The notes below the pieces were generated by a model, which saw only the letters and a program-made list of their open reading frames with translations, ran no database searches and was not told where the DNA came from. A stretch of DNA of 40,693 bases from Candidatus Aminicenantes bacterium (GTDB lineage Bacteria > Acidobacteriota > B3-B38 > Guanabaribacteriales > B3-B38), in assembly GCA_029880275.1 (NCBI GenBank), contig JAOUOQ010000001.1, positions 1 through 40,693 on the forward strand. The letters are read 5' to 3'. This document shows positions 2,002-40,693 of this stretch, in pieces; positions within the stretch are counted from its first letter, which is position 1, and every line of letters starts with the position of its first letter. Both the position numbers and the translations under genes were made by a program.

Positions 2002-2003
2002 AA

Positions 2004-14375: not shown

Positions 14376-15257
14376 CTATTCGATATTTTGCACTTGCTCT
14401 CTAAGCTTCTCTATCTCTGATTTTATGGTCAGGACAGCGGGCATCAGCCCCGGAGCTCTCATTTTAGAAGCTATCGCATTAAGCTCACGAAAGAGCTCCT
14501 GACTGATAAAATCGAGCTTCTTCCCGCAGGGTTCGTCTCCTGACAATAGCCGTTCGCCCTGCTCCAGGTGGCTCTTAATCCTCACTATCTCTTCGGTTAT
14601 GTCTTCCTTCTCTGTATAATATACAACCTCTTGAAGCAATCTTTCTTCATTTAATTTTAGCTGGCTATTATATTCTTTTGCCCTTTCTTTCAGCCGATGA
14701 TAATAATACTTCTTGAGCCTTGGTATCTCTTTTTCTATTGGCTGAAGCAATCCTTTTATTAACTGCAGTCTGTTCTGCAGCTCCCTGGCCAGCGCCTCCC
14801 CCTCGTCCGCCCTGGCCTTTTCCAGCGAGCTTATCGCTTTTCCTAAGGCTTCCATAACAAGGCTCTCTACCTCGGACTCACTCTTCTGGGGAAGGGGCTT
14901 TAACCGAATCAAATGGGGGAGAGTCCAGATGGCATTAATATTTATTTCGCCCCCGAGGTTGAATTCCTCTTTGATCTTTCTAAGCTCTTGAAGATAGTCA
15001 GACATCAAGGGAAAGTTAGTCTGGAGTTCATACTCTAATTCACCCTTATGCTCCAGATGCACCAACACATCAAACTTTCCGCGATAGAATCTTTGCTTTA
15101 CCTCCTTGCGCAGTTTATTCTCCAGGGACATGAGCTCTTCGGGCATTCGCACAGTGACCTCACTGAAGCGGTGATTCAGAGAGCGAATCTCCACTTTTGC
15201 CCTGAGGCCTTCAGCTTCCGCCTCCCCATGCCCATAGCCTGTCATGCTCATTATCAT
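14376..15257 (-). CDS. yicC: YicC-family stress-induced protein
   Basis: N-terminal SMTGYGHGE and the C-terminal DUF1732-like motif ELFRELNAIASKM. Its ATG overlaps the upstream stop (ATGA). Confidence 0.9.
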   Translation of the reverse strand: MIMSMTGYGHGEAEAEGLRAKVEIRSLNHRFSEVTVRMPEELMSLENKLRKEVKQRFYRGKFDVLVHLEHKGELEYELQTNFPLMSDYLQELRKIKEEFNLGGEININAIWTLPHLIRLKPLPQKSESEVESLVMEALGKAISSLEKARADEGEALARELQNRLQLIKGLLQPIEKEIPRLKKYYYHRLKERAKEYNSQLKLNEERLLQEVVYYTEKEDITEEIVRIKSHLEQGERLLSGDEPCGKKLDFISQELFRELNAIASKMRAPGLMPAVLTIKSEIEKLREQVQNIE

Positions 15258-15910
15258 CGATACAATCCATCCACCCTGGCAGTAATCTCGTTCAAAGAAG
15301 CCTCAATCTCCTGGCGCTTCTGCTCCATCTGGAGGGGGGCAGCATCCTTAGAAACCCAGATGGCTTTGCCATAAATAAAGGTTCCTTGAGAGAAAGGGAA
15401 GGGGATCATCATTGTGTCCCAGCTGGACAGGAACTTCTTCCTGGAAGCACTGAAGGAGACCGGCACAACGGGGAGACTACTCAGCCTGGCGATTTGCACC
15501 ACCCCTGGTTTAACCCTTTGCCTGGGACCGCGGGGACCATCCGGGGTCATCGCTATATCAGACCCACGGCAGGTTTCTTCCAAAACCTGCTTCAGAGCGG
15601 ATACCCCCCCACGACTGCTGGAACCCCGAATTGAATGGAAACCAAACCTTCTCATCGCCCGGCTGATATATTCCCCATCTCTGTGGTGACTTATAAGAAT
15701 ATTAATTTGAGAGCCAAAATAACTATAAGGCATCATTAACAGCCTCCCGTGCCAGAAGGCTATGATGTAGTTTTTCCCTTCCCGGGTCAGTTTTTCCACC
15801 TCTGAGCGGTTGATATAATCTATGCTCATGGTAAGACGCAGAAATCTTATCAGAAGGCTCCCCAAAAAGGGTATCAGGATGAGCTTGAGCTTCTCCAGGA
15901 TGTTCTTCAC
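15254..15910 (-). CDS. DUF374 lysophospholipid acyltransferase-family protein
   Basis: AFWHGRLLMMPY, SHHRDGEYISR and MTPDGPRGPRQ motifs. The GTG start shares one base with the msbA stop. Confidence 0.78.
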   Translation of the reverse strand: MKNILEKLKLILIPFLGSLLIRFLRLTMSIDYINRSEVEKLTREGKNYIIAFWHGRLLMMPYSYFGSQINILISHHRDGEYISRAMRRFGFHSIRGSSSRGGVSALKQVLEETCRGSDIAMTPDGPRGPRQRVKPGVVQIARLSSLPVVPVSFSASRKKFLSSWDTMMIPFPFSQGTFIYGKAIWVSKDAAPLQMEQKRQEIEASLNEITARVDGLYR

Positions 15911-17757
15911 TATATATCCTCCACAATTTTCTGCTCCTCCTCTTTGAACTGCAGGTTATAGAGCCTGGTATATACCCCATTTAAGCGGTGGAGGCTATAA
16001 TGGTCCCCTTCTTCCACTATCCTCCCTTTGTCCAATACAATTATTCTTTCCGCATTTCGTACGGTTGATAAGCGATGGGCAATTATCATGGTGGTTCGGT
16101 CCTTCATGAGATTTGCCAGGGCTTTCTGGACCAGAATCTCCGATTCGGAATCCAGGGCAGAGGTAGCTTCGTCGAGTATTAAGATGGGGGAATCCTTGAG
16201 CAGAGCGCGGGCGATGGCGATTCGCTGCCTCTCGCCACCGGAAAGCTTAGCCCCCTTCTCCCCGATAACTGCATCATACCCCTGGGGGAGCTTCTCAATA
16301 AATTCGTGGGCAAAAGCCGCGCTGGCAACAGCCTCCACTTCCTTCGGGGTAGTTATGATGTTTCCATAAGCGATGTTGTTGCGAGCGGTGTCGTTAAAGA
16401 GGATGGTCTCCTGGGTGACAATTCCAATCTGTGCTCTGAGGGAGCGCAGGCTGTATCTCCGAATGTCGATGCCATTGATGAAAATAGCGCCCGAGGTCAC
16501 CTCATAAAAGCGAGGGATCAAATTTACCAGGGTCGACTTCCCCGCTCCGCTTGCTCCCACGATAGCTAACACTTCTCCCTGATTAACCCGAAAGCTTACT
16601 CTGTTCAGAACACGCTCATCTTTGTATTGGAAGGAGACATCCCTGAACTCTATCTCTTTTATAGGTGGGGTGAGCTCAAGAGGATGGGAATCCTCCTTGA
16701 TATCACTATCCCTATCAAGTACCTGGAAAGCCCTCTGAGAAGCGGCAATTGCCTGCTGGAAGGAGTTGCTCACCCGGCTCAGTTTCTTGATAGGATCATA
16801 CATTCCATAGATAGCCGCCAGAAAAGTGCAAAAGACACCCGTAGACATTAACCCCCGGGAGATCTGCCTCCCCCCGTACCATATCATCAAAGCGGCAGCT
16901 ACTGCCCCGATAATCTCCATCAGGGGTGGGGTGAGAGAGACAAATCTCACCGCTCTTAAATTGACTTTGAGCAGCCTCTTGGTGGCTTTGATGAACTTCT
17001 TGATCTCAAACTTTTCCATCCCAAAGGCTTTCACTATGCGGCTGCCAGTTATAGTTTCAAATAATAGCGTAGAAAGCTCCGCCATCCTTTCCTGACTGGA
17101 ATGGCTGATGGAGCGGAGCTTATATCCCAGCTTAATTATCGGATATATCACCAAGGGGGCTACAAAGATGGAGATAGTGGCCAACCTCCAGTCCAGATAA
17201 AATATATAAGCCATCAATCCCAGCAGGATGAAGGAGCCTCTCAATAAATCTCCCATCTTCTCGGATACCGCCTCTTGCATGCGCTCCATATCGCTGATTA
17301 CCCTCGACATCAGCAAGCCGGTGGGATACTCGGAAAAGAAATTCAACGACTGATACTGTATCTTCTGGTAGAGCTGATTCCGTAAGTCCATGACCACACT
17401 CTGCCCCACAAAGCTAATAAAATAGTTCGCACTGTAAGAAAAAACTCCTTTGATCAGGAAGAGGAGGATAACGATTATGGGCACCTGATAGAATATAGTC
17501 TGGTGGTTGATGTTGATTATCCGGTCAATATGAAGGTAGCGATTGAGTAAAGATAAGACATTCTGCTTCTGTGCATAGGCCTCTTCTCCTCTCATCTCAA
17601 CAGCCGAGGAAGGAGTTAAGATATCGTCGAAAATCGGAATGACCAAGGAGGTAAAGGCGACCACACACATGGAGACCACCATCATGCTTAACAGAGAGAA
17701 GAAGAACCTTCCTTTATAGGGAGTTACAAATCTTATTAGTCGTAAAAATTCCTTCAT
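15910..17757 (-). CDS. msbA: lipid A export ABC transporter, fused permease/ATPase (MsbA-like)
   Basis: Six-TM exporter domain plus NBD with GASGAGKST, LSGGERQRIAIARAL and ILILDEATSALD. Lies directly downstream of lpxB. Confidence 0.88.
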   Translation of the reverse strand: MKEFLRLIRFVTPYKGRFFFSLLSMMVVSMCVVAFTSLVIPIFDDILTPSSAVEMRGEEAYAQKQNVLSLLNRYLHIDRIININHQTIFYQVPIIVILLFLIKGVFSYSANYFISFVGQSVVMDLRNQLYQKIQYQSLNFFSEYPTGLLMSRVISDMERMQEAVSEKMGDLLRGSFILLGLMAYIFYLDWRLATISIFVAPLVIYPIIKLGYKLRSISHSSQERMAELSTLLFETITGSRIVKAFGMEKFEIKKFIKATKRLLKVNLRAVRFVSLTPPLMEIIGAVAAALMIWYGGRQISRGLMSTGVFCTFLAAIYGMYDPIKKLSRVSNSFQQAIAASQRAFQVLDRDSDIKEDSHPLELTPPIKEIEFRDVSFQYKDERVLNRVSFRVNQGEVLAIVGASGAGKSTLVNLIPRFYEVTSGAIFINGIDIRRYSLRSLRAQIGIVTQETILFNDTARNNIAYGNIITTPKEVEAVASAAFAHEFIEKLPQGYDAVIGEKGAKLSGGERQRIAIARALLKDSPILILDEATSALDSESEILVQKALANLMKDRTTMIIAHRLSTVRNAERIIVLDKGRIVEEGDHYSLHRLNGVYTRLYNLQFKEEEQKIVEDI

Positions 17758-17767
17758 AGCATATGTC

Positions 17768-18895
17768 TCATATGAACTGCAGCACCGCCCTGGCTGCCCG
17801 ATCAGAAGCTCCCTGGGTGCCGAGCTTTTCCTTTACCCTCAGAAGCTCTTTCTTTACCCCCTCTTTGACCGTCGGATTAAGGAGGAGCCGTAAAACTTCA
17901 TTGGCAATATTTTTGGCTGTTACCTTAAATTGCAAAAGCTCTGTCACTACTTCCCTCCCCGCCAGGATGTTCACCAGAGATATGTATCTGACCTTCACCA
18001 GAAGCTTTGCCAATAGATAACCCGGGAAAGTTAGTTTGTACACCACCACCATAGGAGTCCCCAGTATCGCTGCTTCCAGGGTAGCTGTTCCCGAGGTAAC
18101 TACCATGAGGTCGGAATTCTTAATCAAATTGTAAGTGTCCTTTTCCACCAGGGTAATCTGGGGTAGATAGGGCCTAGCAATCCTTTCCACCAGCCTGCGG
18201 TGCACCCGCTCAGCCAGCGAGATGACAAAATTAAGCTTACGAGCCCTCTGGAGAAGAGGGATGCTCTGCAGCATTGGGGGCAGCAGATACTTTATCTCGC
18301 GCTGACGACTCCCGGGGAGCAGACTCACGATCTCTGCCTCTTTGTCCAGATTGTATTTTTGGCAGAAGCTGCTCCGGTCGAGCTCTGCCTCCACCTCTTC
18401 CAGCAGGGGATGCCCCACAAACTCAGCCTTCAACCCTTGTTGGCGATAGAGAGCTTCTTCAAAGGGAAGTATAACCAACATCTTATCGACCAGCCGGGCT
18501 ATCTTCTTTATCCTGCTGGGATACCATGCCCATACCTGTGGACTTATGTAGTAGATGATCGGTATACGCAGATGCCTAACCTTTTTGGCAAAATGGAGGT
18601 TGAAGTAGGGATAATCTATGAGAACAATAGCCGAGAGGGAATGAGTTTCGACAAATGAGATGAGCCCTTTTAATAGCCTCCTATGATACCCCAGGCTATG
18701 GAGAGCCTCCCACACACCCACCACCTCCAGATGGTCCACATCATAAAGCAACTCCACCCCCGCCTGCCGCATCCGTTCACCACCCACCCCAAAGAAGCGG
18801 GTATTGGGGGACAACTTCCTGATGGCTTTAACCAGCTCTGCCCCGTGTAGCTCACCTGATGCCTCCCCGGAGATAATCAAGATGCTACCATTCAA
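17768..18895 (-). CDS. lpxB: lipid-A-disaccharide synthase
   Basis: ISGEASGELHGAELV at the N-terminus and SGTATLEAAILGTPMVVVYK near the C-terminus. Confidence 0.93.
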   Translation of the reverse strand: MNGSILIISGEASGELHGAELVKAIRKLSPNTRFFGVGGERMRQAGVELLYDVDHLEVVGVWEALHSLGYHRRLLKGLISFVETHSLSAIVLIDYPYFNLHFAKKVRHLRIPIIYYISPQVWAWYPSRIKKIARLVDKMLVILPFEEALYRQQGLKAEFVGHPLLEEVEAELDRSSFCQKYNLDKEAEIVSLLPGSRQREIKYLLPPMLQSIPLLQRARKLNFVISLAERVHRRLVERIARPYLPQITLVEKDTYNLIKNSDLMVVTSGTATLEAAILGTPMVVVYKLTFPGYLLAKLLVKVRYISLVNILAGREVVTELLQFKVTAKNIANEVLRLLLNPTVKEGVKKELLRVKEKLGTQGASDRAARAVLQFI

Positions 18896-19285: not shown

Positions 19286-20293
19286 TTGGTAAAAAGAAGC
19301 CTGAGGTTGTGGCTGGGCATATCTCTGGGGGGCTTCCTTCTATACCTCTTCTTGCGGGGAGCCAATCTCACCCTGGTAATTAATAAGATCAGGGGCGCTA
19401 ATTATCTCCTCATCGGCTTCAGTTTGGGATTAGCCTTGCTGGTGTATCTGGTGCGGGCTTTCCGGTGGAAATTCCTCCTGATGCCCCTCAAGGAGACCCG
19501 CCTCACCAACCTCTTCTCCACCACTATCATTGGGTACATGGTCAACTCTTTAATCCCGGGAAGATTGGGAGAAATTGCGCGACCATACCTCCTTGGCCAG
19601 AAAGAAGGGCTCTCCAAAACGGCAGCTTTCGCTACTATAATTGTGGAGAGGATCTTCGATCTCATAACCCTTCTGGCGCTCTTCTCTCTCTACCTTATGT
19701 TAGCCCCTTCTCTCCGTCACCTCTCTTCTGAAGAATCGGCTATCATGAGTCGGGTGGAGTGGAGTGGTGTGATATCGGCTATTGCTGGTGCCGCTCTCAT
19801 CGCCTTCCTGCTCCTGTGGCATCTTAAGACCCATCTTTTTCTTAAAGTAACGGAGAAGCTATCCTTCTTTCTGCCAGCCCGTCTTTCCCAGGGATTATCG
19901 AAGGGGATAAGCTCCTTTGCCCAAGGGTTAACTGTCCTTAGGGGAAAGAGGCTACTCCTCAGGATAGGACTTTACTCCTTTGTGCATTGGCTAATGGTAA
20001 GCTTCAGCCTGTGGCTGATTCTGTTAGCCTTCAAGATTAATATTCCCTTCTATTTCACCTTCTTGATTCTTCTCTTCGCTGCCACCGGAGCCGCCATACC
20101 CACTCCGGCAGGGGTAGGTGCTTACCACAAAGCGGTGCAGATTGTCCTGGTTAACTTCCTGGCGATTGAAAATAACCTCGCGGTGGGGGCCTCAATTGTC
20201 ATGCATGCGGTTTCCTTCGCACCAGCGACTCTTCTGGGGATTGTTTTGGTCTGGAAAGAGGGTCTCAATATAAGAAAAATAAGCCGTAGTTAA
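19286..20293 (+). CDS. flippase-like membrane protein (UPF0104 / lysyl-PG synthase TM-region family)
   Basis: About 8 TM helices. RAFRWKFLL and PGRLGEIARPYLL motifs. TTG start. Confidence 0.72.
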   Translation: MVKRSLRLWLGISLGGFLLYLFLRGANLTLVINKIRGANYLLIGFSLGLALLVYLVRAFRWKFLLMPLKETRLTNLFSTTIIGYMVNSLIPGRLGEIARPYLLGQKEGLSKTAAFATIIVERIFDLITLLALFSLYLMLAPSLRHLSSEESAIMSRVEWSGVISAIAGAALIAFLLLWHLKTHLFLKVTEKLSFFLPARLSQGLSKGISSFAQGLTVLRGKRLLLRIGLYSFVHWLMVSFSLWLILLAFKINIPFYFTFLILLFAATGAAIPTPAGVGAYHKAVQIVLVNFLAIENNLAVGASIVMHAVSFAPATLLGIVLVWKEGLNIRKISRS

Positions 20294-20494: not shown

Positions 20495-20523
20495 TTGACA
20501 ATTATTCAATGAATATATAGAAT
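20495..20523 (+). promoter_or_regulatory. sigma70-type promoter candidate (TTGACA-17 nt-TAGAAT)
   Basis: TTGACA at 20495-20500, a 17-nt spacer, and TAGAAT at 20518-20523. This would give a leader of about 215 nt before the radical SAM gene. Confidence 0.45.
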
Positions 20524-20745: not shown

Positions 20746-22353
20746 ATGGCTAAAGAAACTGATTACAACGAGATAATACGCCAGGAAGAGATGGAGAAGG
20801 GGGTAGAGTCCGTTACCCACACCTATCTGGGCTCCCCCATAAATCCGCTTTCCCGAGGCCTGCCCAAAACCATCTCTTCCCTGTGCCCGGAGTGTTGTAA
20901 GGTAATCGAAGGGCGTCTTTTTGAAGAAAATGGGAAAGTTATGCTGGAGAAGGAGTGCCCGGTTCACGGGAGGTTCCGGGATATTTACTGGTCTGATGTC
21001 AACTTATACCTTAAAGCCGAAAGGTGGACCTTCGGAGAGGGGCATGGGCTCACCAATCCCAAAGTGACCAAAGCCACCAAGTGCCCCCAGCAGTGTGGTA
21101 TGTGTAACCTCCACACCAGCCATACGGCTCTGGGGAATGTCGACCTCACCAACCGTTGCGACCTCACCTGCCCGGTCTGTTTCGCCAATTCCAACGTCGC
21201 CGGCTACCTCTACGAGCCCTCCTTCGAGCAGGTTCTGACGATGTTAAAAACCCTCCGCGATATGAAGCCGGTGAAGGCTCGGGCAGTGCAGTTCTCCGGC
21301 GGGGAGCCCACCCTCCATCCCAGGTTCCTGGATACCCTGCGGGCAGCCAGAGATATGGGGTTCTCTCACATTCAGGTCGCCTCCAATGGCCTGAATCTGA
21401 GCGACCCTGAGTTTGCCATGAAGTGCGCCGAGGCGGGGTTGCACAACGTCTACCTTCAGCTTGATGGAGTGAGCGACGATGTCTACCTCAAAACCAGGGG
21501 TCGACCCCTCCACGAGATTAAACTCAAAGCCATAGATAGCCTCCGAAAGGCACACATAAAGGTGGTATTCGTCCCCACCATCATCAAAGGGGTAAATAAC
21601 CATGAGGTGGGCGACATCCTGAGATTAGCTCTGGAAAACATAGACACGGTGTCAGGCATCAGCTACCAGCCGGTGGCGTTTACTGGAAGGATAAGCGAAA
21701 AGAAGAGGATGGAGCAGCGTTACACCCTTTCCGACCTGGCTAAAGACCTGAAAGAGCAAACCGGGCTGTTCACCGACGACGACTGGTATCCCCTGTGCTC
21801 CACTGTTCCCTTCACCCGATTCTTAATGGCGTTACGAGGATTCAACTCGGTAAACGTCACATGCCATCCTCACTGCTCCTTAGCCACCTACCTCTTCGTC
21901 AACCAGGACGACCCCCTCAACACTGCTAAGCCGATCACCCAGTTTGTCGATATCCCCAATATACTCAAAGACTTTAACAAGCTGGCTGGAAAGGCCGGAA
22001 ATTCCCGCATTAAAGCCTTCTCCAAAATCAGAGCCTTCCAGACATTCCGCAAGCACTTCAAGGAGGAAAAGGCTCCTAAGGGGCTCACTTTTCTCAAATT
22101 CCTCGACCAGCTGGCCGGGTTGATGGACAAGGATATAGGCAGAGAACCAGAAGGACATCAGAGAATGGCTCTAATGGTGGGCGGGATGCATTTTATGGAT
22201 ATTTACAACTACGATGTGGAGCGGGTGAAAAGATGCGTCATCCACTACACAAGCCCTGATGGGAGCCTTTACCCCTTCTGCACTTACAATTCCGGACCCT
22301 ATTTCAGGGAGAAGGTAGAAAAGAAGTTCTCCACCCCCTTGCCCGGCAAATAG
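20746..22353 (+). CDS. radical SAM enzyme with two CX3CX2C motifs (MJ0619 / Tes / GDGT-MAS-like)
   Basis: CPQQCGMC (C113/117/120) and CDLTCPVC (C138/142/145). N-terminal Cys/His knuckle CPECC...CPVHG, FSGGEPTLHP, and C-terminal Cys residues (CHPHC, FCTYN). AAGGAG RBS before ATG 20746. Confidence 0.88.
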   Translation: MAKETDYNEIIRQEEMEKGVESVTHTYLGSPINPLSRGLPKTISSLCPECCKVIEGRLFEENGKVMLEKECPVHGRFRDIYWSDVNLYLKAERWTFGEGHGLTNPKVTKATKCPQQCGMCNLHTSHTALGNVDLTNRCDLTCPVCFANSNVAGYLYEPSFEQVLTMLKTLRDMKPVKARAVQFSGGEPTLHPRFLDTLRAARDMGFSHIQVASNGLNLSDPEFAMKCAEAGLHNVYLQLDGVSDDVYLKTRGRPLHEIKLKAIDSLRKAHIKVVFVPTIIKGVNNHEVGDILRLALENIDTVSGISYQPVAFTGRISEKKRMEQRYTLSDLAKDLKEQTGLFTDDDWYPLCSTVPFTRFLMALRGFNSVNVTCHPHCSLATYLFVNQDDPLNTAKPITQFVDIPNILKDFNKLAGKAGNSRIKAFSKIRAFQTFRKHFKEEKAPKGLTFLKFLDQLAGLMDKDIGREPEGHQRMALMVGGMHFMDIYNYDVERVKRCVIHYTSPDGSLYPFCTYNSGPYFREKVEKKFSTPLPGK

Positions 22354-22664: not shown

Positions 22665-22693
22665 TTGACATTTATAAAATAGCTTGCTATAAT
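22665..22693 (+). promoter_or_regulatory. consensus sigma70 promoter (TTGACA-17 nt-TATAAT)
   Basis: Perfect -35 at 22665-22670 and perfect -10 at 22688-22693, about 40 nt upstream of the first gene of the Lol-like cassette. Confidence 0.65.
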
Positions 22694-22730: not shown

Positions 22731-23702
22731 GTGAAAAGAGAAAAGGGGAAGCTATTTTTTAATGGAGAGAAAGGGTTTTTGAGATCAAACTCTTCAACAA
22801 AGCTGGTTATTTTTTTTGCCTTGATAGGGATATTTCTGTATGGAGGGTGCAGTGTATTCCGCTACGAGATAAAGAAAAGGGAGGTAAAAGTCTCATACAA
22901 GGAAGCCTCGTTGGATCAGCTGTTAGAGCTTATCAACCGGAACCAGGAGCTGATCCATAGCCTGACTGCCTCCTTGCAAGTAGGACTGAACTTTGGGGTT
23001 CCCGGTAAATACGACAGCTGCAAGGGTCAGCTGCTGATAGAGCGACCCCATAAGATCCGCCTTACAGGCTATCGCTCGCTTATGCCAACTTTCTTCCTTA
23101 TGGTGGCCGATGCCGATAATTATTGGGTTTACATACCCTCAAAGAAGAAGGTCTATCAAGGGCTTACTGCTAAAAACAATATGCTCCCTTATAAGGACGA
23201 AGAGGTCTCCATCAAGGATATTAAGCCACATGAAATCCTGGCTGCTCTGATGCTGGATGATAAGATTACCCCCAGCCAGAGTGAAAGAAAAGCATATCTT
23301 GACATTTTGCCGAATATATATATTATTAATATTGTTGAGACGAAGGGAGATAGTCTGCTATATCCAGTAAGAAGGATATGGGTGGAAAGAGAAAAGCTAA
23401 CTGTTGTGAGGCACGAACTTTTCGACTCCCAGGGGCGTTTGCGCAGCGAGGTCTATTTCAGTAACCATCGCCCGGCAGGGGAGACTACTTTCCCCGGGCT
23501 GGTGCTTATAAAAAGACCGTGGGAGGGTATGAGCATCAGATTGGTGTTCAATAAGATTAAATTAAATCAACCTCTAAACCCCGAAGCTTTCAGCTTCCAA
23601 CCCTCTGAGGATGTTGAAGTCATCAATGTAGACACCCATAACCAGGAAATCCCTTTAAGAAACTCAATTAAAAACTATTGGAATGAACAATGGCAAACTT
23701 AG
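22731..23702 (+). CDS. LolA/LolB-fold lipoprotein (outer-membrane lipoprotein-sorting-like)
   Basis: Lipobox FLYGGC. GQLLIERPHKIRLTGY...MVADADNYWVYIPSKKKVYQG resembles LolA/LolB-type half-barrels. Start is GTG 22731 or, more plausibly, TTG 22779. Confidence 0.6.
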   Translation: MKREKGKLFFNGEKGFLRSNSSTKLVIFFALIGIFLYGGCSVFRYEIKKREVKVSYKEASLDQLLELINRNQELIHSLTASLQVGLNFGVPGKYDSCKGQLLIERPHKIRLTGYRSLMPTFFLMVADADNYWVYIPSKKKVYQGLTAKNNMLPYKDEEVSIKDIKPHEILAALMLDDKITPSQSERKAYLDILPNIYIINIVETKGDSLLYPVRRIWVEREKLTVVRHELFDSQGRLRSEVYFSNHRPAGETTFPGLVLIKRPWEGMSIRLVFNKIKLNQPLNPEAFSFQPSEDVEVINVDTHNQEIPLRNSIKNYWNEQWQT

Positions 23703-24793
23703 CCATAGCCAATCTTTCTAAGAGAAAAACAAGAACCTTAGTCAGCATCCTGGCGGTAGCTATTGAAATAACCCTTATCTTAGTTCTGGTCGGCTTGACC
23801 AAAGGAACCCTCAACGATGTTGCCTCCCGCATCCAGAATATAGGGGCGGACATCCTTTTCCTCCCACCGGGAGCTTCCAGTATCCTCAGCTTGAATAACT
23901 ACTTTATGCACATTAACCTTAAAGACTCTATTATAGCCACCGAAGGGGTCAAAGCGGTTTCCCCGGTAATGACCTGGATGACCAACAAACTTGGAGGCAT
24001 AGGGGGGAACATTATATTTGGAATAAACCCCAAAGAGTTCAATAATGTCGGAGGCAATCTGGAACTGCTGAGCGGAAAGCACTTACAAGGTGAATACGAT
24101 ATGTTGGTAGATAGAAGGCTGGCAGAGGCAAACGATCTGCGCCTGAACGACCAGGTGGAGGTCTTAAATCACCAGTTCACCGTTGTCGGCATTTTGAAGG
24201 CAGGAGTAGGAGCGAGAATTTACATCCCGCTGACCACCCTCCAGAACGCTCTCAACGAACCCAATCGGGTCTCCCTGTTCTTTGTCAAATGCCAATCACC
24301 AGAGCAGGTGGGCGAAGTCGCCAGCCGGCTGGAGAAGAGCTTCCCCGGTTATCAGACCCAGCTCAGCGAAACCTACGCGCAAGATTTAGCCGAAAGCGCC
24401 CGGGGAATCAACCAATTCATCAGCGCCATTACCGCTATAGCCATCCTGGTGAGCTTCCTGGTGATACTTTTAGCTATGTATACCACCATCATTGAGCGAA
24501 CTCGAGAGATCGGTATCCTCAAAGCCCTGGGAGCTACCAAAGCTTACATCGTAAAGACCATCGTGACCGAAGCCGTCGCCCTCAGCATTATAGGAATACT
24601 TTGCGGATATCTGTTATCTTTTGCTGCTCAAACCTGGATGAGTAACGCTTATCCCCTCATTACCATCATCATCACCCCCTCCTGGATAATCCTGGCGGGC
24701 ATTCTGGGACTGGTAAGTGGCTTCCTTGGTTCCCTTTACCCCTCATACCGGGCAGCTACATTGGATCCGGTGGAGGCTCTTAATTACGAGTAA
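23690..24793 (+). CDS. ABC transporter permease, FtsX/MacB/LolC-E family
   Basis: N-terminal IANLSKRKTRTLVSILAVAI helix, a periplasmic domain of about 200 aa, and three C-terminal TMs with RTREIGILKALGAT and SLYPSYRAATLDPVEAL. Confidence 0.88.
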   Translation: MANLAIANLSKRKTRTLVSILAVAIEITLILVLVGLTKGTLNDVASRIQNIGADILFLPPGASSILSLNNYFMHINLKDSIIATEGVKAVSPVMTWMTNKLGGIGGNIIFGINPKEFNNVGGNLELLSGKHLQGEYDMLVDRRLAEANDLRLNDQVEVLNHQFTVVGILKAGVGARIYIPLTTLQNALNEPNRVSLFFVKCQSPEQVGEVASRLEKSFPGYQTQLSETYAQDLAESARGINQFISAITAIAILVSFLVILLAMYTTIIERTREIGILKALGATKAYIVKTIVTEAVALSIIGILCGYLLSFAAQTWMSNAYPLITIIITPSWIILAGILGLVSGFLGSLYPSYRAATLDPVEALNYE

Positions 24794-24845
24794 GAGGAGA
24801 GCGGATTTTTAAAGCAAACATAAGCCTTTTATCAAGGAACTTTCA

Positions 24846-25523
24846 GTGAACAATATTCTTCGGGCTAAAAATTTGGGAAAGGTTTATCGGGTGGGTAAGA
24901 TAGATATCCACGCTGTTCGCGGTGTCAATCTCGACGTTGAAAAGGGGGAGTTTGTATCCATTGTGGGACCGTCTGGCTGCGGAAAGTCCACCCTTCTCCA
25001 CCTCATGGGGGGGATGGCAAAACCCACCACGGGAAAGGTGTTCATAGAGGGAACTGACCTCTCCATGATAAGCGATGGCGAGCGTGCTAAGATTCGTCGA
25101 GATAAGATAGGCTTCGTGTTCCAGCGATTTAATCTCTTCTCTGCCCTTAACTCTCAGCAGAACCTCGAGATTGCCATGCAGATATGCCACAATGGGAATA
25201 TCGACCATCAGCGTATAAAAGAAATTATGAAGTTAGTGGGATTAGAGAATAAGCTCCAGCATAAACCATTGGAGCTCTCCATGGGGGAACAGCAGAGGGT
25301 TGCCATTGCGCGCGCCTTGGTAAATAATCCCTTATTAATTCTGGCTGATGAACCTACCGGTAATCTCGACTCGGCAAACTCCTATAAGGTTCTCTATCTG
25401 CTGAAAGACCTGAACCGAAATCTGGGACAGACAATAGTCCTCATCACCCATAATCAGGAGGCTTCTAAGATAGCCGATAGAAAAATCGAAATGAAGGATG
25501 GAATGATAATATCCCTTTCCTGA
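24846..25523 (+). CDS. ABC transporter ATP-binding protein, LolD/MacB type
   Basis: [43 protein letters not shown] and ITHN. GTG start. Confidence 0.9.
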
Positions 25524-25585
25524 CAACCCTCTTTCCAGCTTAGTTATATTATACCTTCGGCGAGCACCTTAATGACCGGAGGCAA

Positions 25586-25978
25586 TTGACCTACGATATG
25601 AAGCCAATAATTCAGAAGATAGGCTCCACCTGCTGGAAGTGGATCTTCTGGGCTTATGAGAGGGGGAGCTGGCAACATACCTTATTATGCGCTATTATAA
25701 TCTTGATTCTCATCTTTGTCCCCTTCTGGCATGGGAAAGAAACACCGCAGGATAACAGCTCCCCCGTGGTTGTCGTGGAGGAAAAAGAGCTGGACCAGGA
25801 GCTTCTCTACATTAAAATTGAGTTAGCCCCCGACCAAAAACCGGGCACAGATGAAACCAAGCAGCTTATTTCCGCTTTGACCGAGCAGCTACAGAAACAC
25901 CATCAGGTGAAAAACATCCTCCCCCTTCTATCAGAAGATGGCAAGCTGAGGGGATTTTCTCTCTTTGTTCAGAAATAG
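25586..25978 (+). CDS. hypothetical single-pass membrane protein
   Basis: One TM (TLLCAIIILILIFVPFW) and an acidic soluble tail. The start may be ATG 25598 rather than TTG 25586. Confidence 0.5.
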   Translation: MTYDMKPIIQKIGSTCWKWIFWAYERGSWQHTLLCAIIILILIFVPFWHGKETPQDNSSPVVVVEEKELDQELLYIKIELAPDQKPGTDETKQLISALTEQLQKHHQVKNILPLLSEDGKLRGFSLFVQK

Positions 25979-25991
25979 AGGTTAATTCGTT

Positions 25992-26810
25992 ATGAACTGT
26001 AAGAATAAGACTTCAAAGCTTAAAACCATCCTAATTTTGCTTCTCCTCTGCTTATTTTGCAACATAAAAAGCTGGGCGTCTGAAACACCAGGAGGACCCT
26101 ATCCGGCAACTGAAGAGGATAAATTACAATTTATCCTGAGTCAGCTGAAGAAAGCCGATGCGCAGTTGACGAGCTTCGTCGCCGACTTCAAAGAAACCAG
26201 AATCTTCCTTTACAGCCCAGAGCCGGAGGTTGCCGAGGGGAAGATATACTTTAAAAAGCCCCAGCAAGTCCGCTGGGACTATTACCCACCGGGAGAGAAG
26301 CATATTGTTCTTACCCCTGCCAAGGCGTGGCTCTACCTTCCCGAAATAAAACAGGTGCAGCTGATAAATTTGAAGGGGGAAAAGAAACTCTCCTCTCTCC
26401 CTATCGGTCTCAGCGGACCATCACCCGACTTTGAAAAGAACTATCAGATTCGTTTGATAGAAGAGGAAGGAGAAACTATAGAAAATAAGAGATATATATT
26501 GGAACTCACCCCTGTTTCCGACAGCGAAGTAGCCGCCGTCTATACCCGCATCCTGCTCACCTTATCCGAAAAGAGGTGGCTCCCTGCTGACAAGATTGAA
26601 TTGCTGGAGTTAACCGGGGACAAGACGATTATAGAACTCAGCGAAATCTCCCTCAATACCAAAATCTCCTCCAAACTTTTCAAGTTTGACGTCCCCAGAG
26701 ATGTCGAGATTATTGACCACACCGAAAAGCAGCCCCCTTCCAGAAACCCAGCCGACTTAATCTGCCAGGGCGAGCTCCTTCAACGCCTTTACCAACTCTC
26801 TATCCTCTGA
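25992..26810 (+). CDS. LolA-like periplasmic lipoprotein carrier protein
   Basis: Signal peptide. FKETRIFLYSPEPEVAEGKIYFKKPQQVRWDYYPPGEKHIVLTPAKAWLYLPEIKQVQ matches the LolA core pattern. The C-terminal extension overlaps selA on the opposite strand. Confidence 0.75.
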   Translation: MNCKNKTSKLKTILILLLLCLFCNIKSWASETPGGPYPATEEDKLQFILSQLKKADAQLTSFVADFKETRIFLYSPEPEVAEGKIYFKKPQQVRWDYYPPGEKHIVLTPAKAWLYLPEIKQVQLINLKGEKKLSSLPIGLSGPSPDFEKNYQIRLIEEEGETIENKRYILELTPVSDSEVAAVYTRILLTLSEKRWLPADKIELLELTGDKTIIELSEISLNTKISSKLFKFDVPRDVEIIDHTEKQPPSRNPADLICQGELLQRLYQLSIL

Positions 26811-28181
26811 AGGGAGAACGGTTCGGAGGTCTATAATCACCCTCTCCTCCTGAATGCGAGCAATTACTGGAAGCGGCCTCATCCTTAGCTTTCGACTGAT
26901 AGTATCAGCAGTATGGCGGGTGGATGTCACCGCAATCAATCTGCTGGGAAGTTCCACCAGGGGGATCGTTCCACCACCTACCTTGGAAGCTCCTTCCATA
27001 ATCTCTACCTTTAAAGAAGAACCTTTAACCTTACCAAGCTCTTCAATAATCGCCTCCGCCCTTCTTTGAAGTTCCTCCAACGGTGTAGAGAGCATCTGCA
27101 ATACCGGGATGGAGACCTCGGGCCTCCCTTTCAGATACTCCATGAGGGTGGCTTCCAAAGCGAGATAGGTCAGCTTTCCCGCCCTTACTGCCCTCAACAG
27201 GGGATTCCCCTTGACTCTGGCGATTAGCTCCTTATCACCCACTATGATTCCTGATTGGGGTCCTCCCAGCAATTTATCCCCACTAAAGCTGATAATGTTG
27301 GCCCCTTTTGCCAATATTTCCTCCACCGAGGGCTCATCTGTTATGCCATAAGGGCTGAGGTCTATCATATTACCGCTGCCCATATCCTCCATCACCGGTA
27401 TCCCATGCCTCCGCCCCAGCGCCACCAGCTCCTCCATCCTCACCGATTCGGTGAAGCCGAGGATGCGGAAATTGCTCTGATGAACTGCCAGCAACAGGGC
27501 TGTATTAGGAGAGATTGCCCTCTCGTAGTCTTGCAGCCTGGTCTTATTGGTGGTGCCCACCTCCTTAAGTACGGCTCCGCTTTTCTCCATGACCTCGGGT
27601 ATCCTGAATGAGCCTCCTACCTCCACCAGCTCCCCTCGCGACACAATGACCTCTTTCCCCTCTGCCAGGGTGTTCAATACCAGCAATACGGCGGCGGCGT
27701 TGTTATTTACCACCACACAAGACTTTCCCGGAAACATCCTGGAGATAAGACGCTCCACTGGAAGGTCCCGCGCCCCTCTTCTTCCCTCCTCCAGGGAGAA
27801 CTCCAGATTCAGGTAGCGGCAGGAAAGCTCCTGCAAGCGCTCCACTGCCGAGGGGCATAGCGACGCCCTCCCCAGGTTGGTATGGATGATCACCCCGGTA
27901 GCGTTGATCACCCGATGAAGGAAGGGTGAGAGCTGCGCCTTAAGCCTCTGTCTCAGCTCATCAATGAGACCCTCAGCTCTCTTTTTAACCTCCTGCAGGT
28001 CAGCCTTCCCCTGGGAGATCTCATTCCTTATCGCTGCCAGCAGCTCCCTGATGTTATGGAGGATAAACTCCCGACTGTATCTGGATATGAGCTGCTTCAC
28101 CTCATTCTTTTCCATAAGCTGGTCTACGGAGGGAAGGAAGCGAAAGCCTTTGTCGTGGTTTTCAGAGCTTGTATTTTTCAT
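26757..28181 (-). CDS. selA: L-seryl-tRNA(Sec) selenium transferase
   Basis: N-terminal LPSVDQLM, INATGVIIHTNLGRA, and the PLP-lysine region SFSGDKLLGGPQSGII. Confidence 0.93.
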   Translation of the reverse strand: MKNTSSENHDKGFRFLPSVDQLMEKNEVKQLISRYSREFILHNIRELLAAIRNEISQGKADLQEVKKRAEGLIDELRQRLKAQLSPFLHRVINATGVIIHTNLGRASLCPSAVERLQELSCRYLNLEFSLEEGRRGARDLPVERLISRMFPGKSCVVVNNNAAAVLLVLNTLAEGKEVIVSRGELVEVGGSFRIPEVMEKSGAVLKEVGTTNKTRLQDYERAISPNTALLLAVHQSNFRILGFTESVRMEELVALGRRHGIPVMEDMGSGNMIDLSPYGITDEPSVEEILAKGANIISFSGDKLLGGPQSGIIVGDKELIARVKGNPLLRAVRAGKLTYLALEATLMEYLKGRPEVSIPVLQMLSTPLEELQRRAEAIIEELGKVKGSSLKVEIMEGASKVGGGTIPLVELPSRLIAVTSTRHTADTISRKLRMRPLPVIARIQEERVIIDLRTVLPSEDRELVKALKELALAD

Positions 28182-32219: not shown

Positions 32220-33668
32220 TTAAAATCTGGGGTCGTATCGGATGAACAGCACAAAGGAGATCAGAAAGAAAATGATATTTAGCATAATCATATAAAATAT
32301 TCCCCAGAGATAATCTCCAAAATTGACCGGCATTTTTGCCTCTGGCTCTTCGGGTATTTTAAATTGAGCCTCATCCAATTTGATGTCACTAAAAGCATCT
32401 GGTGATAATCCTTTTATAACAAAATTACCAGACGAAACCCAAAAGCTTCGCTTTTTATCAGCTACCTTAAAAAGATTCTGTTTCTTATAGTCAAAAGCTA
32501 TATGCTGAAATTTCTCTCTGATATTTTCTGCCAATCTTTGAAGCAAAGCCTGGTGTGCATACCCTGTGCCGCCGGTCATTTCGCACAGCTTCTGATAAAA
32601 GAAAAAGGGGGATATCTTCGCTAACAAGAATTTTAATCGTATCTGCTCCTTAATTTTGTTCTGGAAATCTCTTTTCACTTTCGCCTCGGCATTTAGCATT
32701 TTGTTTTGTATAGAGAAATGCTTCTCGTAGATTTCTTTTTGCAATTGCTCTATTAATTTCTGCTTTTCCTCATCAGAGATAGGCTTAGTTAATATCGGCT
32801 CTAATAGTAAAGATGAAACACTTAATTGCCGAGAAAATGGCATCCTTGCATCTTTAATATTTTCCTCAAGGACAATGGGAGATGGGGAAGGCTTTACATA
32901 CTCACCGGCTATAAAGCTTAAGTTAGGAATTATAAAAATAAAGGCAATCCATATTAAAAGAGCAAAAAGCAGAGAGATGGATGAGCTTTTAAAGAGAACC
33001 GAGCAGAATATCCCCATCAAGCTTATCAGGGAGATGAATAACACAGATAGTATGAAAATTATAAGTATCTTATAAAAATCTGAGATGCTCAGATACACAT
33101 TCCCCATCACCCTCAATATCAGAACATCAATCAGCAGCCCCATCACCATCAGCACCGAGAGAAACATCACCACACTGATATACTTGCCGAGAAGGAGGGT
33201 TGATTTTCTTACCGGGTTGGACAGGGTCAATGCCAGAATGCCACTCTCCCTTTCCCCGGAAATCTCAGAATAGGTCAGCAGCAGCGCCAGTAGACTGATA
33301 AATACCCCTACCATAAATGTCCAATCGGGCTGGACAATGTCCTTCAAATAGGAGAGGGCATCAATCTTCTTGTACTCCTCCTCCACCAGAAAGGGAGTAA
33401 TCCTGAACACATCCGGCAGCCCCTTCTCACCCCCCTCGGATAAAAAGATTAACCTGGACGGCTTCTTAACATATTCTATGCTTTCAATGGAATATCCATC
33501 TCTTGCCGAGGCATTGAGCCTATGATAAACCCTTTGCCTTTGATTGATTTCATTGGAGTAATAGAGCCCGCTTAAGGAAATCAAAATTATTATCACCAGC
33601 AGAGATATGACCAGCCGTAGGTCCAGGAGGTATTTCCGCAGGGTATTTAAAATAATCAGCCGTTTCAT
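32220..33668 (-). CDS. ABC-2 family permease with long charged C-terminal insert (paralogue A)
   Basis: 482 aa. N-terminal TM, a loop, about 5 clustered TMs, a charged helical segment and a final TM. The first 38 and last 36 residues are identical to paralogue B. Confidence 0.85.
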   Translation of the reverse strand: MKRLIILNTLRKYLLDLRLVISLLVIIILISLSGLYYSNEINQRQRVYHRLNASARDGYSIESIEYVKKPSRLIFLSEGGEKGLPDVFRITPFLVEEEYKKIDALSYLKDIVQPDWTFMVGVFISLLALLLTYSEISGERESGILALTLSNPVRKSTLLLGKYISVVMFLSVLMVMGLLIDVLILRVMGNVYLSISDFYKILIIFILSVLFISLISLMGIFCSVLFKSSSISLLFALLIWIAFIFIIPNLSFIAGEYVKPSPSPIVLEENIKDARMPFSRQLSVSSLLLEPILTKPISDEEKQKLIEQLQKEIYEKHFSIQNKMLNAEAKVKRDFQNKIKEQIRLKFLLAKISPFFFYQKLCEMTGGTGYAHQALLQRLAENIREKFQHIAFDYKKQNLFKVADKKRSFWVSSGNFVIKGLSPDAFSDIKLDEAQFKIPEEPEAKMPVNFGDYLWGIFYMIMLNIIFFLISFVLFIRYDPRF

Positions 33669-33750
33669 CTATCTTAAATCGTATCTATTAAAGTTGTACA
33701 AAGATAGAAGCATCAGTATCACATTCCAGGATATTAATATAACAAATCCT
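33669..33750 (-). pseudogene. 82-nt relic of the 3' end of the 419-aa permease gene (duplication scar)
   Basis: The minus strand reads GFVILISWNVILMLLSLYNFNRYDLR-stop. The live gene end is GLVILISWNVILLLLSLYNFNRYDLR-stop (35305-35386). The relic TAG abuts the ATG of paralogue A exactly as at the live junction. Confidence 0.85.
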
Positions 33751-35304
33751 TCAAAATCTTGGGTCGTATCTGATAAACAGCACAAAGGAGATGAGAAAGA
33801 AAATGATATTTAGCATAATCATATAAAATATTCCCCAAAGATAATCTCCAAAATTGACCGGTATCCCTGTTTCCGGCTCATCGGGTATTTTAAATTGACC
33901 CTCTTCCAATTTGATGTCACTTAAATCTGAGTAGGCGGATAATTTTTTTATTACAAAAGCTCCATCCTCAGCAAGTATATTGAGCATTGTTTTTATATCT
34001 AGAATCTCTCCCTGTGCGTATGCACCTGGCTCTTTGGGTAATAAGTCATTTAGCCTAGACTTGCCAAGCCAAGCGAACCCAGATGGTGATTCATCAGATT
34101 CTTTTATAAGATACTGTTTTTGCTGGGCAAGAGCTACAGGTTGAAATTGCTCTTTAATATTTTCTGCCAATCTTTGAAGCAAAGCCTGATGTGCATACCC
34201 GGTGCTGCCGGTCATTTCGCACAGATTTTGATAAAGGAAAAAGGGGGATATCTTCGCTAACAGAAATTTCAATCGTATCTGCTCCTTAATTTTGTTCTGG
34301 AAATCTCTTTTCACTTTCGCCTCTGCTTGTAGCCTTTCATTCCTTACAGAGAAATGCTTCTCATAGATTTCTTTTTGCAATTGCTCTACTAATATCCGCT
34401 TCTGCTCATCAGGGATAGGCTTATTCACTATCGGCTCTAATAATGAATCCGAAATAGATATACGACCACGAAATTGGTCATTTGCAATTCTAATGTTCTC
34501 CTCCAGAACAATTGGAGATGGGGCAGGCCTCACATACTCACCGGCGATAAAGCTTAAATTCGGTATTACAAAAATGAAAGCAATCCATATCAAAAGAGCA
34601 AAAAGTAGAGAAATGGATGAGCTTTTAAAGAGAACCGAACAGAATATCCCCATCAAGCTGATAAGGGAGATAAATAAAACAGATAATATGAAAATTATCA
34701 GGATTTTATAAAAATCTGAGATGCCTAGATACACATTCCCTATAATCCTCAATATCAGAACATCAATCATCAACCCCATCAGCAGCAGCACGGAGAGAAA
34801 CACCACCGCACTGATATACTTGCCGAGAAGGAGGTCGGATTTTCTCACCGGATTGGATATGGTTAATGCCAGAATGCCGCTCTCCCTTTCCCCGGAGATC
34901 TCAGAATAGGTCAGCAGCAGCGCCAGCAGGCTGATAAATACCCCCACTATAAAGGTCCAATCGGGCTGGATGATGTCCTTCAAATAGGAGAGGGCATCAA
35001 TCTTCTTATATTCTTCCTCTACCACAAAGGGGGTAATCCTGAACACATCCGGCAGTCCCTTCTCACCCCCCTCGGATAAAAAGATCAGTTTAGCCGGCTT
35101 TTTCACATACTCTATGCTCTCAATGGAAGATTCATCTCTTGCTAAAGTATTAAGTCTATTATAAACCCTTTGCCTTTGATTGATTTCATGCGAGTAATAA
35201 AGCCCGCTTAAGGATATGAGTATTATTATCACCAGCAGAGATATGACCAGCCGTAGGTCCAGGAGGTATTTCCGCAGGGTATTTAAAATAATCAGCCGTT
35301 TCAT
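33751..35304 (-). CDS. ABC-2 family permease with long charged C-terminal insert (paralogue B)
   Basis: 517 aa, collinear with paralogue A, with an extra segment of about 35 aa in the C-terminal soluble region. Its ATG immediately follows the TAG of the upstream permease gene. Confidence 0.85.
   Translation of the reverse strand: MKRLIILNTLRKYLLDLRLVISLLVIIILISLSGLYYSHEINQRQRVYNRLNTLARDESSIESIEYVKKPAKLIFLSEGGEKGLPDVFRITPFVVEEEYKKIDALSYLKDIIQPDWTFIVGVFISLLALLLTYSEISGERESGILALTISNPVRKSDLLLGKYISAVVFLSVLLLMGLMIDVLILRIIGNVYLGISDFYKILIIFILSVLFISLISLMGIFCSVLFKSSSISLLFALLIWIAFIFVIPNLSFIAGEYVRPAPSPIVLEENIRIANDQFRGRISISDSLLEPIVNKPIPDEQKRILVEQLQKEIYEKHFSVRNERLQAEAKVKRDFQNKIKEQIRLKFLLAKISPFFLYQNLCEMTGSTGYAHQALLQRLAENIKEQFQPVALAQQKQYLIKESDESPSGFAWLGKSRLNDLLPKEPGAYAQGEILDIKTMLNILAEDGAFVIKKLSAYSDLSDIKLEEGQFKIPDEPETGIPVNFGDYLWGIFYMIMLNIIFFLISFVLFIRYDPRF

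Positions 35305-38842: not shown

Positions 38843-40693
<1,851 letters not shown>

Follow-up and report, generated by a model that had tools for sequence, protein, structure and literature searches.

The window analysed here is a stretch of 40,693 nt from Candidatus Aminicenantes bacterium (assembly GCA_029880275.1, contig JAOUOQ010000001.1, positions 1 to 40,693). It carries an open reading frame (ORF) with an ATG start that encodes a 535-aa protein. By sequence, this protein is a clear member of the Tes family of radical S-adenosylmethionine (SAM) enzymes, which includes the glycerol dialkyl glycerol tetraether (GDGT)/macrocyclic archaeol synthase (GDGT-MAS) MJ0619 of M. jannaschii. The gene and the metal sites predicted for its product are:

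20746..22353 (+): Tes/GDGT-MAS-family radical SAM gene (P0001), assigned with NF045702, 7tol_A and the predicted fold compared with 7tom
20884..20967 (+): rubredoxin-like mononuclear iron site C47-X2-C50-X20-C71-X2-H74, from alignment to C9/C12/C33/H36 of MJ0619 and from PF23545
21082..21114 (+): ligands C113, C117, C120 and H123 of the N-terminal auxiliary [4Fe-4S] cluster, from alignment to C73/C77/C80 and His of MJ0619
21157..21180 (+): radical SAM [4Fe-4S] motif C138-X3-C142-X2-C145, from alignment to C98/C102/C105 of MJ0619 and from PF04055
21874..22281 (+): C-terminal auxiliary [4Fe-4S] region with C377, M481, C497, C512 and Y501, from alignment mapping to 7tol

Family assignment, fold and metal ligands

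The NCBIfam model NF045702 for the tetraether lipid synthase Tes scored 565.4 bits against a cut-off of 450 (E 9e-170, profile positions 3-485 of 486), and the profile search of the genome contigs gave the window gene the same score. The sister model TrsS (NF045646) reached 334.3 bits, which is below its cut-off of 490. Pfam placed a Radical_SAM domain (PF04055) at residues 134-295 (7e-25) and an HMPTM-type zinc ribbon (PF23545) at residues 40-83 (3e-18). In a sequence search of the PDB, the only strong solved relative was 7tol_A, M. jannaschii GDGT-MAS (E 7.4e-134, residues 25-532), followed by SkfB at E 3.6e-10. On these sequence scores, membership of the family is far beyond chance.

An AlphaFold2 model computed from a 43-sequence alignment had a mean predicted local distance difference test score of 88.9 and a predicted template modelling (TM) score of 0.91, with low confidence in the ~40 N-terminal residues that are additional to MJ0619. 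Foldseek ranked the PDB entries 7tom and 7tol on top, with TM scores of 0.85 (query) and 0.91 (target), a root-mean-square deviation of 2.6 A over 494 columns and 42% identity, and the predicted model matched the four-domain fold of MJ0619 (7TOL/7TOM) over its full length. All remaining matches covered the radical SAM core alone, with query TM scores of at most 0.35; SkfB was the next of these (0.33).

To locate the metal ligands, we transferred those described by Lloyd et al. 2022 (PMC9433317, from the sections of that paper at hand, as for all papers cited here) through the 7tol_A alignment, taking into account that the 7tol chain has a 20-residue tag, so that the native number is the chain number minus 20. 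In this alignment, the labile Met439 of MJ0619 corresponds to M481 and Tyr459 to Y501, and the GGEP SAM-binding motif lies at residues 185-188. The rubredoxin-site ligands and the SAM-cluster cysteines were invariant in 43 of 43 aligned family members, as were C377, C497 and C512; M481 was at least 90% conserved. For C113, C117, C120 and H123, invariance was found in 14 of 14 diverse sequences and conservation of at least 90% among the 43. The other mapped positions, Y501 included, likewise showed no variation in the 14 sequences and were at least 90% conserved among the 43. We infer from their invariance that C377, C497 and C512 are the cysteine ligands of the C-terminal cluster, for which the sections of PMC9433317 at hand name Met439. 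These data support that the cofactor set and the overall fold of the archaeal enzyme are present, the former as read from aligned sequence and the latter as modelled.

A first-pass annotation of this DNA, made from the letters alone, had assigned the protein to the MJ0619 (Tes/GDGT-MAS) family with three [4Fe-4S] clusters and a rubredoxin-like iron, and had proposed that ligand conservation be examined. The model cut-off, ligand map, predicted fold and phylogeny (see below) back that assignment, and all metal ligands are kept in both the 14- and the 43-sequence alignments. All the motifs that it quoted are located in the 535-aa ORF: its N-terminal Cys/His knuckle CPECC...CPVHG is C47/C50...C71/H74, and among its additional C-terminal cysteines CHPHC holds C373 and C377 and FCTYN includes C512. 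Its description of two radical-SAM-type motifs holds only in part. Two CX3CX2C motifs exist, CPQQCGMC (C113/C117/C120) and CDLTCPVC (C138/C142/C145), with 18 positions from C120 to C138; the first, however, supplies ligands to the N-terminal auxiliary cluster, because it aligns with C73/C77/C80 and the His of MJ0619, and by alignment C138/C142/C145 is the sole SAM cluster motif.

Phylogeny and distribution of bacterial Tes

Among 8000 scored candidates in 90% clusters we found 5160 matches, and 557 representatives of 50% clusters reached E <=1e-30. The best non-self matches were 60-63% identical, and those with names came from Acidobacteriota, Latescibacteria and Eiseniibacteriota; NCBI already titles some relatives "tetraether lipid synthase Tes". 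Of 601 pattern matches in one-genome-per-species contigs, 591 could be confirmed, of which the 80 best loci were retained for comparison. The closest named Tes relatives belonged to Acidobacteriota (Bryobacteraceae, Terriglobia and Solibacter-type), with 54-61% identity.

A quick IQ-TREE analysis (LG+C20) of 86 rows, with support from the Shimodaira-Hasegawa-like approximate likelihood-ratio test (SH-aLRT) only, comprised the window protein, its paralogue from the same genome (see below), 7 proteins from relatives, 71 named loci and 6 verified TrsS proteins as outgroup. Loci with partial or broken frames (L045, L069, L071, L074, L084, L085 and L087), the intein-containing L077 (1121 aa) and L040, a duplicate of L013, were excluded. 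All 47 bacterial Tes rows formed a single clade (SH-aLRT 100), mostly of Acidobacteriota. Its sister was a group of 23 rows from Thermoplasmatota and Methanomassiliicoccales, joined to it with a support of 99, and the Tes proteins of Methanosarcina, Methanoperedens, Methanobacterium, Bathyarchaeota and Hadarchaeota fell outside that pair. The branch separating Tes from the 6 TrsS rows had an SH-aLRT of 100. The first-pass annotation had allowed that phylogeny or structure might place the protein in another radical SAM clade; tree and fold both place it in Tes, apart from TrsS and with Thermoplasmatota Tes on the sister side.

The tree is consistent with a single transfer from archaea to bacteria and later spread among the latter. 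We treat this scenario as a lead only, because the sample consists of the 80 most query-like loci and the root lies on a long outgroup branch.

Two contigs titled as gut bacteria, L073 (Dialister hominis) and L075 (Bacteroides salyersiae), carried Tes sequences nested among those of Methanomethylophilaceae and Methanomassiliicoccaceae; these contigs probably come from archaea and were wrongly placed in bins of gut bacteria. L024, L033 and L037 (Acidobacteriaceae, Terriglobales) carry, 2-4 kb upstream of Tes, a second, longer gene of Tes-like radical SAM type, which encodes ~700 aa with a zinc ribbon and Radical_SAM domain and matched the query with E values of 1e-65 to 1e-85. Many genomes of the same phylum hold just that ~700-aa class, at 310-346 bits.

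Paralogues, neighbours and lipid genes in the host lineage

The host genome (G000) is a metagenome-assembled genome of 2.23 Mb in 386 contigs and is 79% complete. The DnaE protein encoded in the window is 97% identical to a protein of an "Acidobacteriota bacterium", and the next named matches (57-60%) are from Candidatus Polarisedimenticolia and other Acidobacteriota. For comparison we used the four nearest relatives, G001-G004 (80-100% complete; G002-G004, 93-100%), of which G002 is a congener and G003 and G004 are from the same order. In all, 41 genomes were searched; G000 is one of them, and another is the unpublished G027, in which Tes and DUF2229 were both absent.

The 3.3-kb contig C115 of G000 encodes a second Tes above the cut-off (573.9 bits). 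The two proteins are identical at 476 of 535 residues (89%) and have all ligands in common; 23 of the 59 differences fall within residues 396-475, a stretch of 80 residues in the helical part of the C-terminal half. On C115, Tes follows a CDP-alcohol phosphatidyltransferase gene by 41 nt, and kdsB is divergent from the transferase gene. The same arrangement, with kdsC-like, kdsA, pyrG and kdsB genes on one side and the transferase gene and Tes on the other, was found in G002, G003 and G004, so that the transferase-Tes pairing occurs in four genomes of the order:

L001:1993-2658 (-), L097:9159-9824, L098:8272-8850 and L100:8134-8712: CDP-alcohol phosphatidyltransferase gene upstream of Tes, in four genomes

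Within 8 kb of Tes, that transferase was present in none of the other 80 named loci. All transferase models scored below their cut-offs, the best being archaetidylinositol phosphate synthase (152 bits, cut-off 180), with phosphatidylinositol phosphate synthase at 112-135 bits; the named relatives, at 50-59% identity, were all from Acidobacteria. By these comparisons the transferase is a native acidobacterial head-group enzyme, with inositol phosphate as its probable head group.

G000 and G002 differ by a reciprocal exchange of the flanks of the two paralogues. The window contig of G000 runs from msbA-lpxB and the flippase-like gene through Tes into a Lol cassette and SelA, and C115 runs from kdsB and the transferase gene through Tes into 340 nt with homology to the RelA-PilMN side. 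An 81-kb contig of G002 joins kdsB and the transferase gene through Tes to the Lol cassette and SelA; in this genome, a 5' fragment of Tes terminates the flippase-like flank, and a 3' fragment of Tes runs into RelA-PilMN. G004 has the order transferase, Tes, FtsX (-) and RelA and is thus C115-like. The 5' parts of Tes are more alike between paralogues within a genome (92.4% in G000, 97.5% in G002) than between orthologues of different species (87-89%), which points to gene conversion between the paralogues, as judged from sequence; the last 350 nt of the Tes genes group by downstream flank. Because the paralogues stay different in residues 396-475 despite gene conversion, they could conceivably serve two substrates or head groups.

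The longest exact run shared by the two G000 paralogues lies at the start of the gene:

20810..20891 (no strand): 82 nt with no difference between the paralogues, where a mis-join or recombination may have occurred

Four public runs in the Logan data hold 70-78% of the sampled words. Three of them (X2-X4) break at or near the 82-nt stretch, and the fourth (X1 record 2) has a low-depth contig of 1003 nt that is window-type from 20231 through the repeat and, past it, carries the letter of the C115 paralogue at 19 of 22 diagnostic sites, i.e., a G002-type join. One public run of RNA origin holds 0.05 of the sampled words. Either the copies have recombined, by inversion between paralogues, or the two partners were exchanged at the repeat when G000 was assembled. 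Given the 82-nt identity and the unitig breaks there, the opening 64 nt of the ORF, together with all sequence upstream of them, may derive from the other paralogue. The body of Tes is securely linked to the Lol cassette, but not to the flippase-like gene and lpxB-msbA.

The window genes around Tes are:

15254..18895 (-): lipid A genes lpxB and msbA with a DUF374 gene, divergent from the flippase-like gene (PF02684 1e-101; ABC_membrane and ABC_tran; PF04028)
19286..20293 (+): flippase-like membrane protein, LPG_synthase_TM (PF03706 1.8e-45; TIGR00374 90 bits, cut-off 43)
20495..20523 (+): sigma-70-like promoter match TTGACA-17-TAGAAT, 11/12, by consensus only
22665-22693 (no strand): promoter match 12/12 before the Lol cassette, by consensus only
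22731..26810 (+): Lol-like cassette of LolA-like, FtsX/MacB-type permease, ABC ATPase, 130-aa ORF and LolA, by Pfam

The MsbA model TIGR02203 gave 564.6 bits, below its cut-off of 602, and every score of the Lol cassette against the NCBIfam models LolCE, LolD and LolA was below the respective cut-off. The gaps between Tes and its neighbours are 452 nt upstream and 377 nt downstream. Because of these gaps and the promoter-like sites before Tes and before the Lol cassette, co-transcription of the window Tes with either neighbour appears unlikely from the sequence. The Lol cassette also lies downstream of a Tes gene in G002 (L097) and G001 (L107), and the flippase-like gene lies upstream of the Tes 5' fragment in the congener G002 (L109). 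Beyond the order, no conserved neighbours were detected by phmmer (12 neighbour proteins against all loci) or by Pfam (102 ORFs of 20 loci). The first-pass annotation had placed the gene between a flippase-like gene and a Lol cassette, a few kb from lpxB-msbA, and had taken this placement to fit a membrane-lipid substrate. The genes are as described; the upstream link, however, is possibly chimeric, which together with the gaps makes the argument from context weak.

At other loci, msbA and lpxB lie ~5 kb upstream of Tes in L071 and L087 (Acidobacteriaceae), as in the window. In Bryobacterales Tes is directly followed by another radical SAM gene, and in Planctomycetota by a radical SAM-SPASM gene (L017:9642-10841, L054:9727-11265, also L067, L070 and L072); these genes may encode lipid-modifying partners.

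Elsewhere, the window encodes, besides lpxB and the msbA-like gene, SelA and HdrA-like genes, the latter as HdrA-like flavoprotein genes at 37595-40531. The LolA gene (+) and selA (-) are convergent with a 54-nt overlap (25992-28181). A SIR2-family gene beside a SLOG (LDcluster4/STALD) gene at 1255-2678 (-) could be a defence-type pair or an ordinary pairing of a sirtuin with a LOG-like protein. At 32220-36564 (-), three ABC-2 membrane protein genes in tandem lie in a stretch with a low GC content of 0.39-0.42 and adjoin genes for a NEW3-domain protein and an ABC ATPase; two of the three products have identical first 30 residues, and the sequence suggests a recent tandem duplication. An Rfam scan of the window gave no match.

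As suggested in the first-pass annotation, we searched for ether-lipid genes elsewhere in the genomes. The HGD-D domain (PF06050) was a poor probe for Ger, being silent in the Thermotoga control, and DUF2229 with BcrAD_BadFG was used instead. A PlsA/Ger-type protein of ~1022 aa with two BcrAD_BadFG domains and DUF2229 is encoded in 4 of 4 nearest relatives, with a 425-434-aa ORF following its gene, and inositol-1-phosphate synthase is likewise found in all four. In the 79%-complete G000, neither an HGD-D, DUF2229 or BcrAD_BadFG domain, i.e., no PlsA/Ger gene, nor inositol-1-phosphate synthase was detected. The search was thus positive for the lineage and negative for the host assembly. A sigma-54 activator with GAF domains precedes the PlsA/Ger-type pair at L116:4565-8901 and L117:4440-8788. 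NAD_binding_4 (PF07993), used as a probe for ElbD, matched only frames of short-chain-reductase size (280-382 aa) in G000-G004 and was uninformative for ElbD.

Across the 41 genomes, Tes exceeded its cut-off in 10 and DUF2229 was present in 15: in 8 of the 10 Tes-positive genomes (the exceptions being G000 and G022) versus 7 of the 31 others. Frames with DUF2229 of ~1023-1062 aa occur in G001-G004, G014, G016, G020, G032, G033 and G037, and those of 1170-1360 aa only in genomes without Tes above the cut-off (G014 has both forms). Because the relatives are not independent, this co-occurrence is a pattern and not a test.

For the archaeal diether pathway, GGGPS (PF01884) had no match above the cut-off in 5 of 5 genomes (G000-G004) and CarS (PF01864) was found in 0 of the 5. 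The sole UbiA-family prenyltransferase match in G000 (C235:577-1338, L016) has an internal TAG.

Proposed chemistry and its alternatives

By analogy with the archaeal enzyme, the protein very likely performs the chemistry of its family, tail-to-tail C-C coupling of lipid chains. As in MJ0619, it would bind two glycerolipids with their head groups outward and spend two SAM per bond, removing hydrogen from the terminal carbon of each of two alkyl tails; the first of the two radicals would be parked on the C-terminal cluster as a carbon-sulfur intermediate. The resulting C(sp3)-C(sp3) bond would give a membrane-spanning lipid, or a macrocyclic one if both tails belong to one lipid. With regard to the substrate, because no archaeal diether pathway was seen in the lineage, the genomes suggest the bacterium's own fatty-acid-derived glycerophospholipids, with ester bonds or with ether bonds made by PlsA/Ger. 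Head groups would probably be glycerol or inositol phosphate, and the expected products would be lipids of the diabolic-acid or branched GDGT (brGDGT) type. GDGT-MAS crystals have bacterial phosphatidic acid in their pockets (PMC9433317), and the enzyme can therefore accommodate ester lipids. Our preferred reading, a functional bacterial Tes that couples the host's own glycerophospholipids, thus draws on analogy for its substrate as well as its reaction, and we give it a probability of roughly 0.6.

The brGDGT idea, which the first-pass annotation also raised, is not new. Zeng et al. 2022 (PMC8941075) had already described 456 Tes homologues from bacteria, Acidobacteria included, and proposed a role in brGDGT synthesis, and Lloyd et al. 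2022 (PMC9433317) noted bacterial homologues whose role they described as not known.

Several points weigh against the preferred reading. Published activity was not found for any bacterial Tes homologue in the literature searched: a 2025 Black Sea study (PMC11868695) describes bacterial Tes activity as not confirmed, and the available parts of a 2026 review (PMC13459092) and a 2026 Bacillota study (PMC13274423) report no test of a bacterial Tes. According to the portion of PMC13159169 consulted, Tes is absent from the screened producers of diabolic and iso-diabolic acid and present in only 3 of 14 iso-diabolic-acid-producing acidobacteria, and the confirmed bacterial coupling enzyme is the unrelated Mss (Sahonero-Canavesi et al. 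2022). In addition, the window gene has no tight operon partner, and the host assembly yielded neither a PlsA/Ger gene nor inositol-1-phosphate synthase.

The alternative that fares best, which we nevertheless consider quite unlikely, is that coupling is intramolecular only and gives macrocyclic diacyl or dialkyl glycerolipids instead of membrane-spanning lipids. With a single active site, MJ0619 produces macrocyclic archaeol as well as GDGT (PMC9433317), and expression of one M. acetivorans homologue, MA_1114, yielded no more than traces of macrocyclic archaeol (PMC8941075). The sequence does not tell the two outcomes apart; both lipid pockets are apparently kept in the full-length match of the predicted fold.

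We regard as very unlikely that the same chemistry acts on another envelope substrate, such as the acyl chains of lipid A or a lipid of the LPS/Lol genes. Genes for outer-membrane lipids are found beside both paralogues: lpxB-msbA and Lol in the window and, in the relatives, kdsB-pyrG-kdsA; msbA-lpxB recurs upstream of Tes in L071 and L087. The genes are only loosely adjacent, however, being set apart by large gaps and having promoter-like sites of their own. Most of the 80 named loci lack this adjacency, and the only tightly linked partner of Tes is a phospholipid head-group enzyme.

It is extremely unlikely that the protein is a GDGT synthase acting on archaeal-type isoprenoid diethers that the bacterium itself makes. 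The 42% identity to MJ0619, the position of the bacterial clade beside Thermoplasmatota Tes and the score of the paralogue's neighbour against the archaetidylinositol phosphate synthase model would suit such an enzyme. GGGPS and CarS, however, were not detected in G000-G004 at the cut-offs used, the single UbiA match has an internal stop, the transferase scores below the archaeal cut-off and has named relatives only in Acidobacteria, and according to the parts of Zeng et al. at hand GDGT production is known from no bacterium (PMC8941075).

Finally, an identity as a TrsS member or as a "class D methylase" of the older naming, with no lipid role, is practically untenable and, barring biochemistry to the contrary, is refuted by the model cut-offs and the tree: the TrsS score of 334 bits, the nearby SelA and database names that still read 7,8-dihydro-6-hydroxymethylpterin dimethyltransferase are outweighed by a TrsS score below and a Tes score above the respective cut-off, by the branch of support 100 that splits off six TrsS proteins, and by the statement of Lloyd et al. 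that pterin methylase activity could not be corroborated (PMC9433317).

The preferred reading is also framed by the related systems. With MJ0619, the protein has in common the domain order, four metal sites, the labile Met, the conserved Tyr and the full-length fold; the host, in contrast, is a bacterium without a detectable archaeal diether pathway, for which reason the substrate must differ. The Acidobacteriota homologues named by Zeng et al. as brGDGT candidates (Ca. Solibacter usitatus and Ca. Koribacter versatilis) belong to the same bacterial clade. Compared with them, the window gene comes from a lineage with a small genome (2.2 Mb) that carries SelA and HdrA-like genes and that DnaE places nearest to Polarisedimenticolia; this lineage has two recombining paralogues and the order-specific pairing with a CDP-alcohol phosphatidyltransferase. 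Mss of Thermotoga and Thermoanaerobacter is a radical SAM enzyme for the reaction proposed here, tail-to-tail coupling of fatty acids, with Ger forming the ether bonds in Thermotoga and Firmicutes (PMC13159169), and Mss models share the catalytic architecture of Tes according to a 2026 paper (PMC13274423). It belongs to another family, however, and is set apart by published comparison, in which BLAST with Tes finds nothing in Mss hosts (PMC13159169); moreover, its activity is demonstrated, whereas that of bacterial Tes is a prediction. TrsS (NF045646) likewise has an N-terminal zinc ribbon, an auxiliary cluster and a radical SAM core, but is ~440-470 aa long with a divergent C-terminal domain and forms a separate clade.

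Bacterial Tes copies are already known and routinely annotated, and the window gene is an ordinary further case that is no easier to test than homologues in cultured strains, e.g., Solibacter usitatus. What this analysis adds are two paralogues with gene conversion between them, a head-group enzyme paired with Tes at the level of the order, the co-occurrence with one PlsA type and the warning about the upstream join. brGDGTs are widely used as temperature and pH proxies, and to our knowledge the enzyme that couples them in Acidobacteria has not been demonstrated, with bacterial Tes homologues as published candidates. To these candidates the gene adds another, whose acidobacterial host lineage is uncultured and anaerobe-like, and the hypothesis is sharpened by the head-group-enzyme pairing, by the one PlsA/Ger type that co-occurs and by the single bacterial clade next to Thermoplasmatota Tes. 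A more specific and still unlikely possibility is that, in this acidobacterial order, Tes, the transferase, inositol-1-phosphate synthase and the ~1030-aa PlsA-type enzyme form a small dedicated module for membrane-spanning ether lipids with inositol phosphate head groups; if so, Tes would be no stray archaeal gene here, and these lipids would be a bacterial counterpart of the archaeal inositol-phospho-GDGTs.

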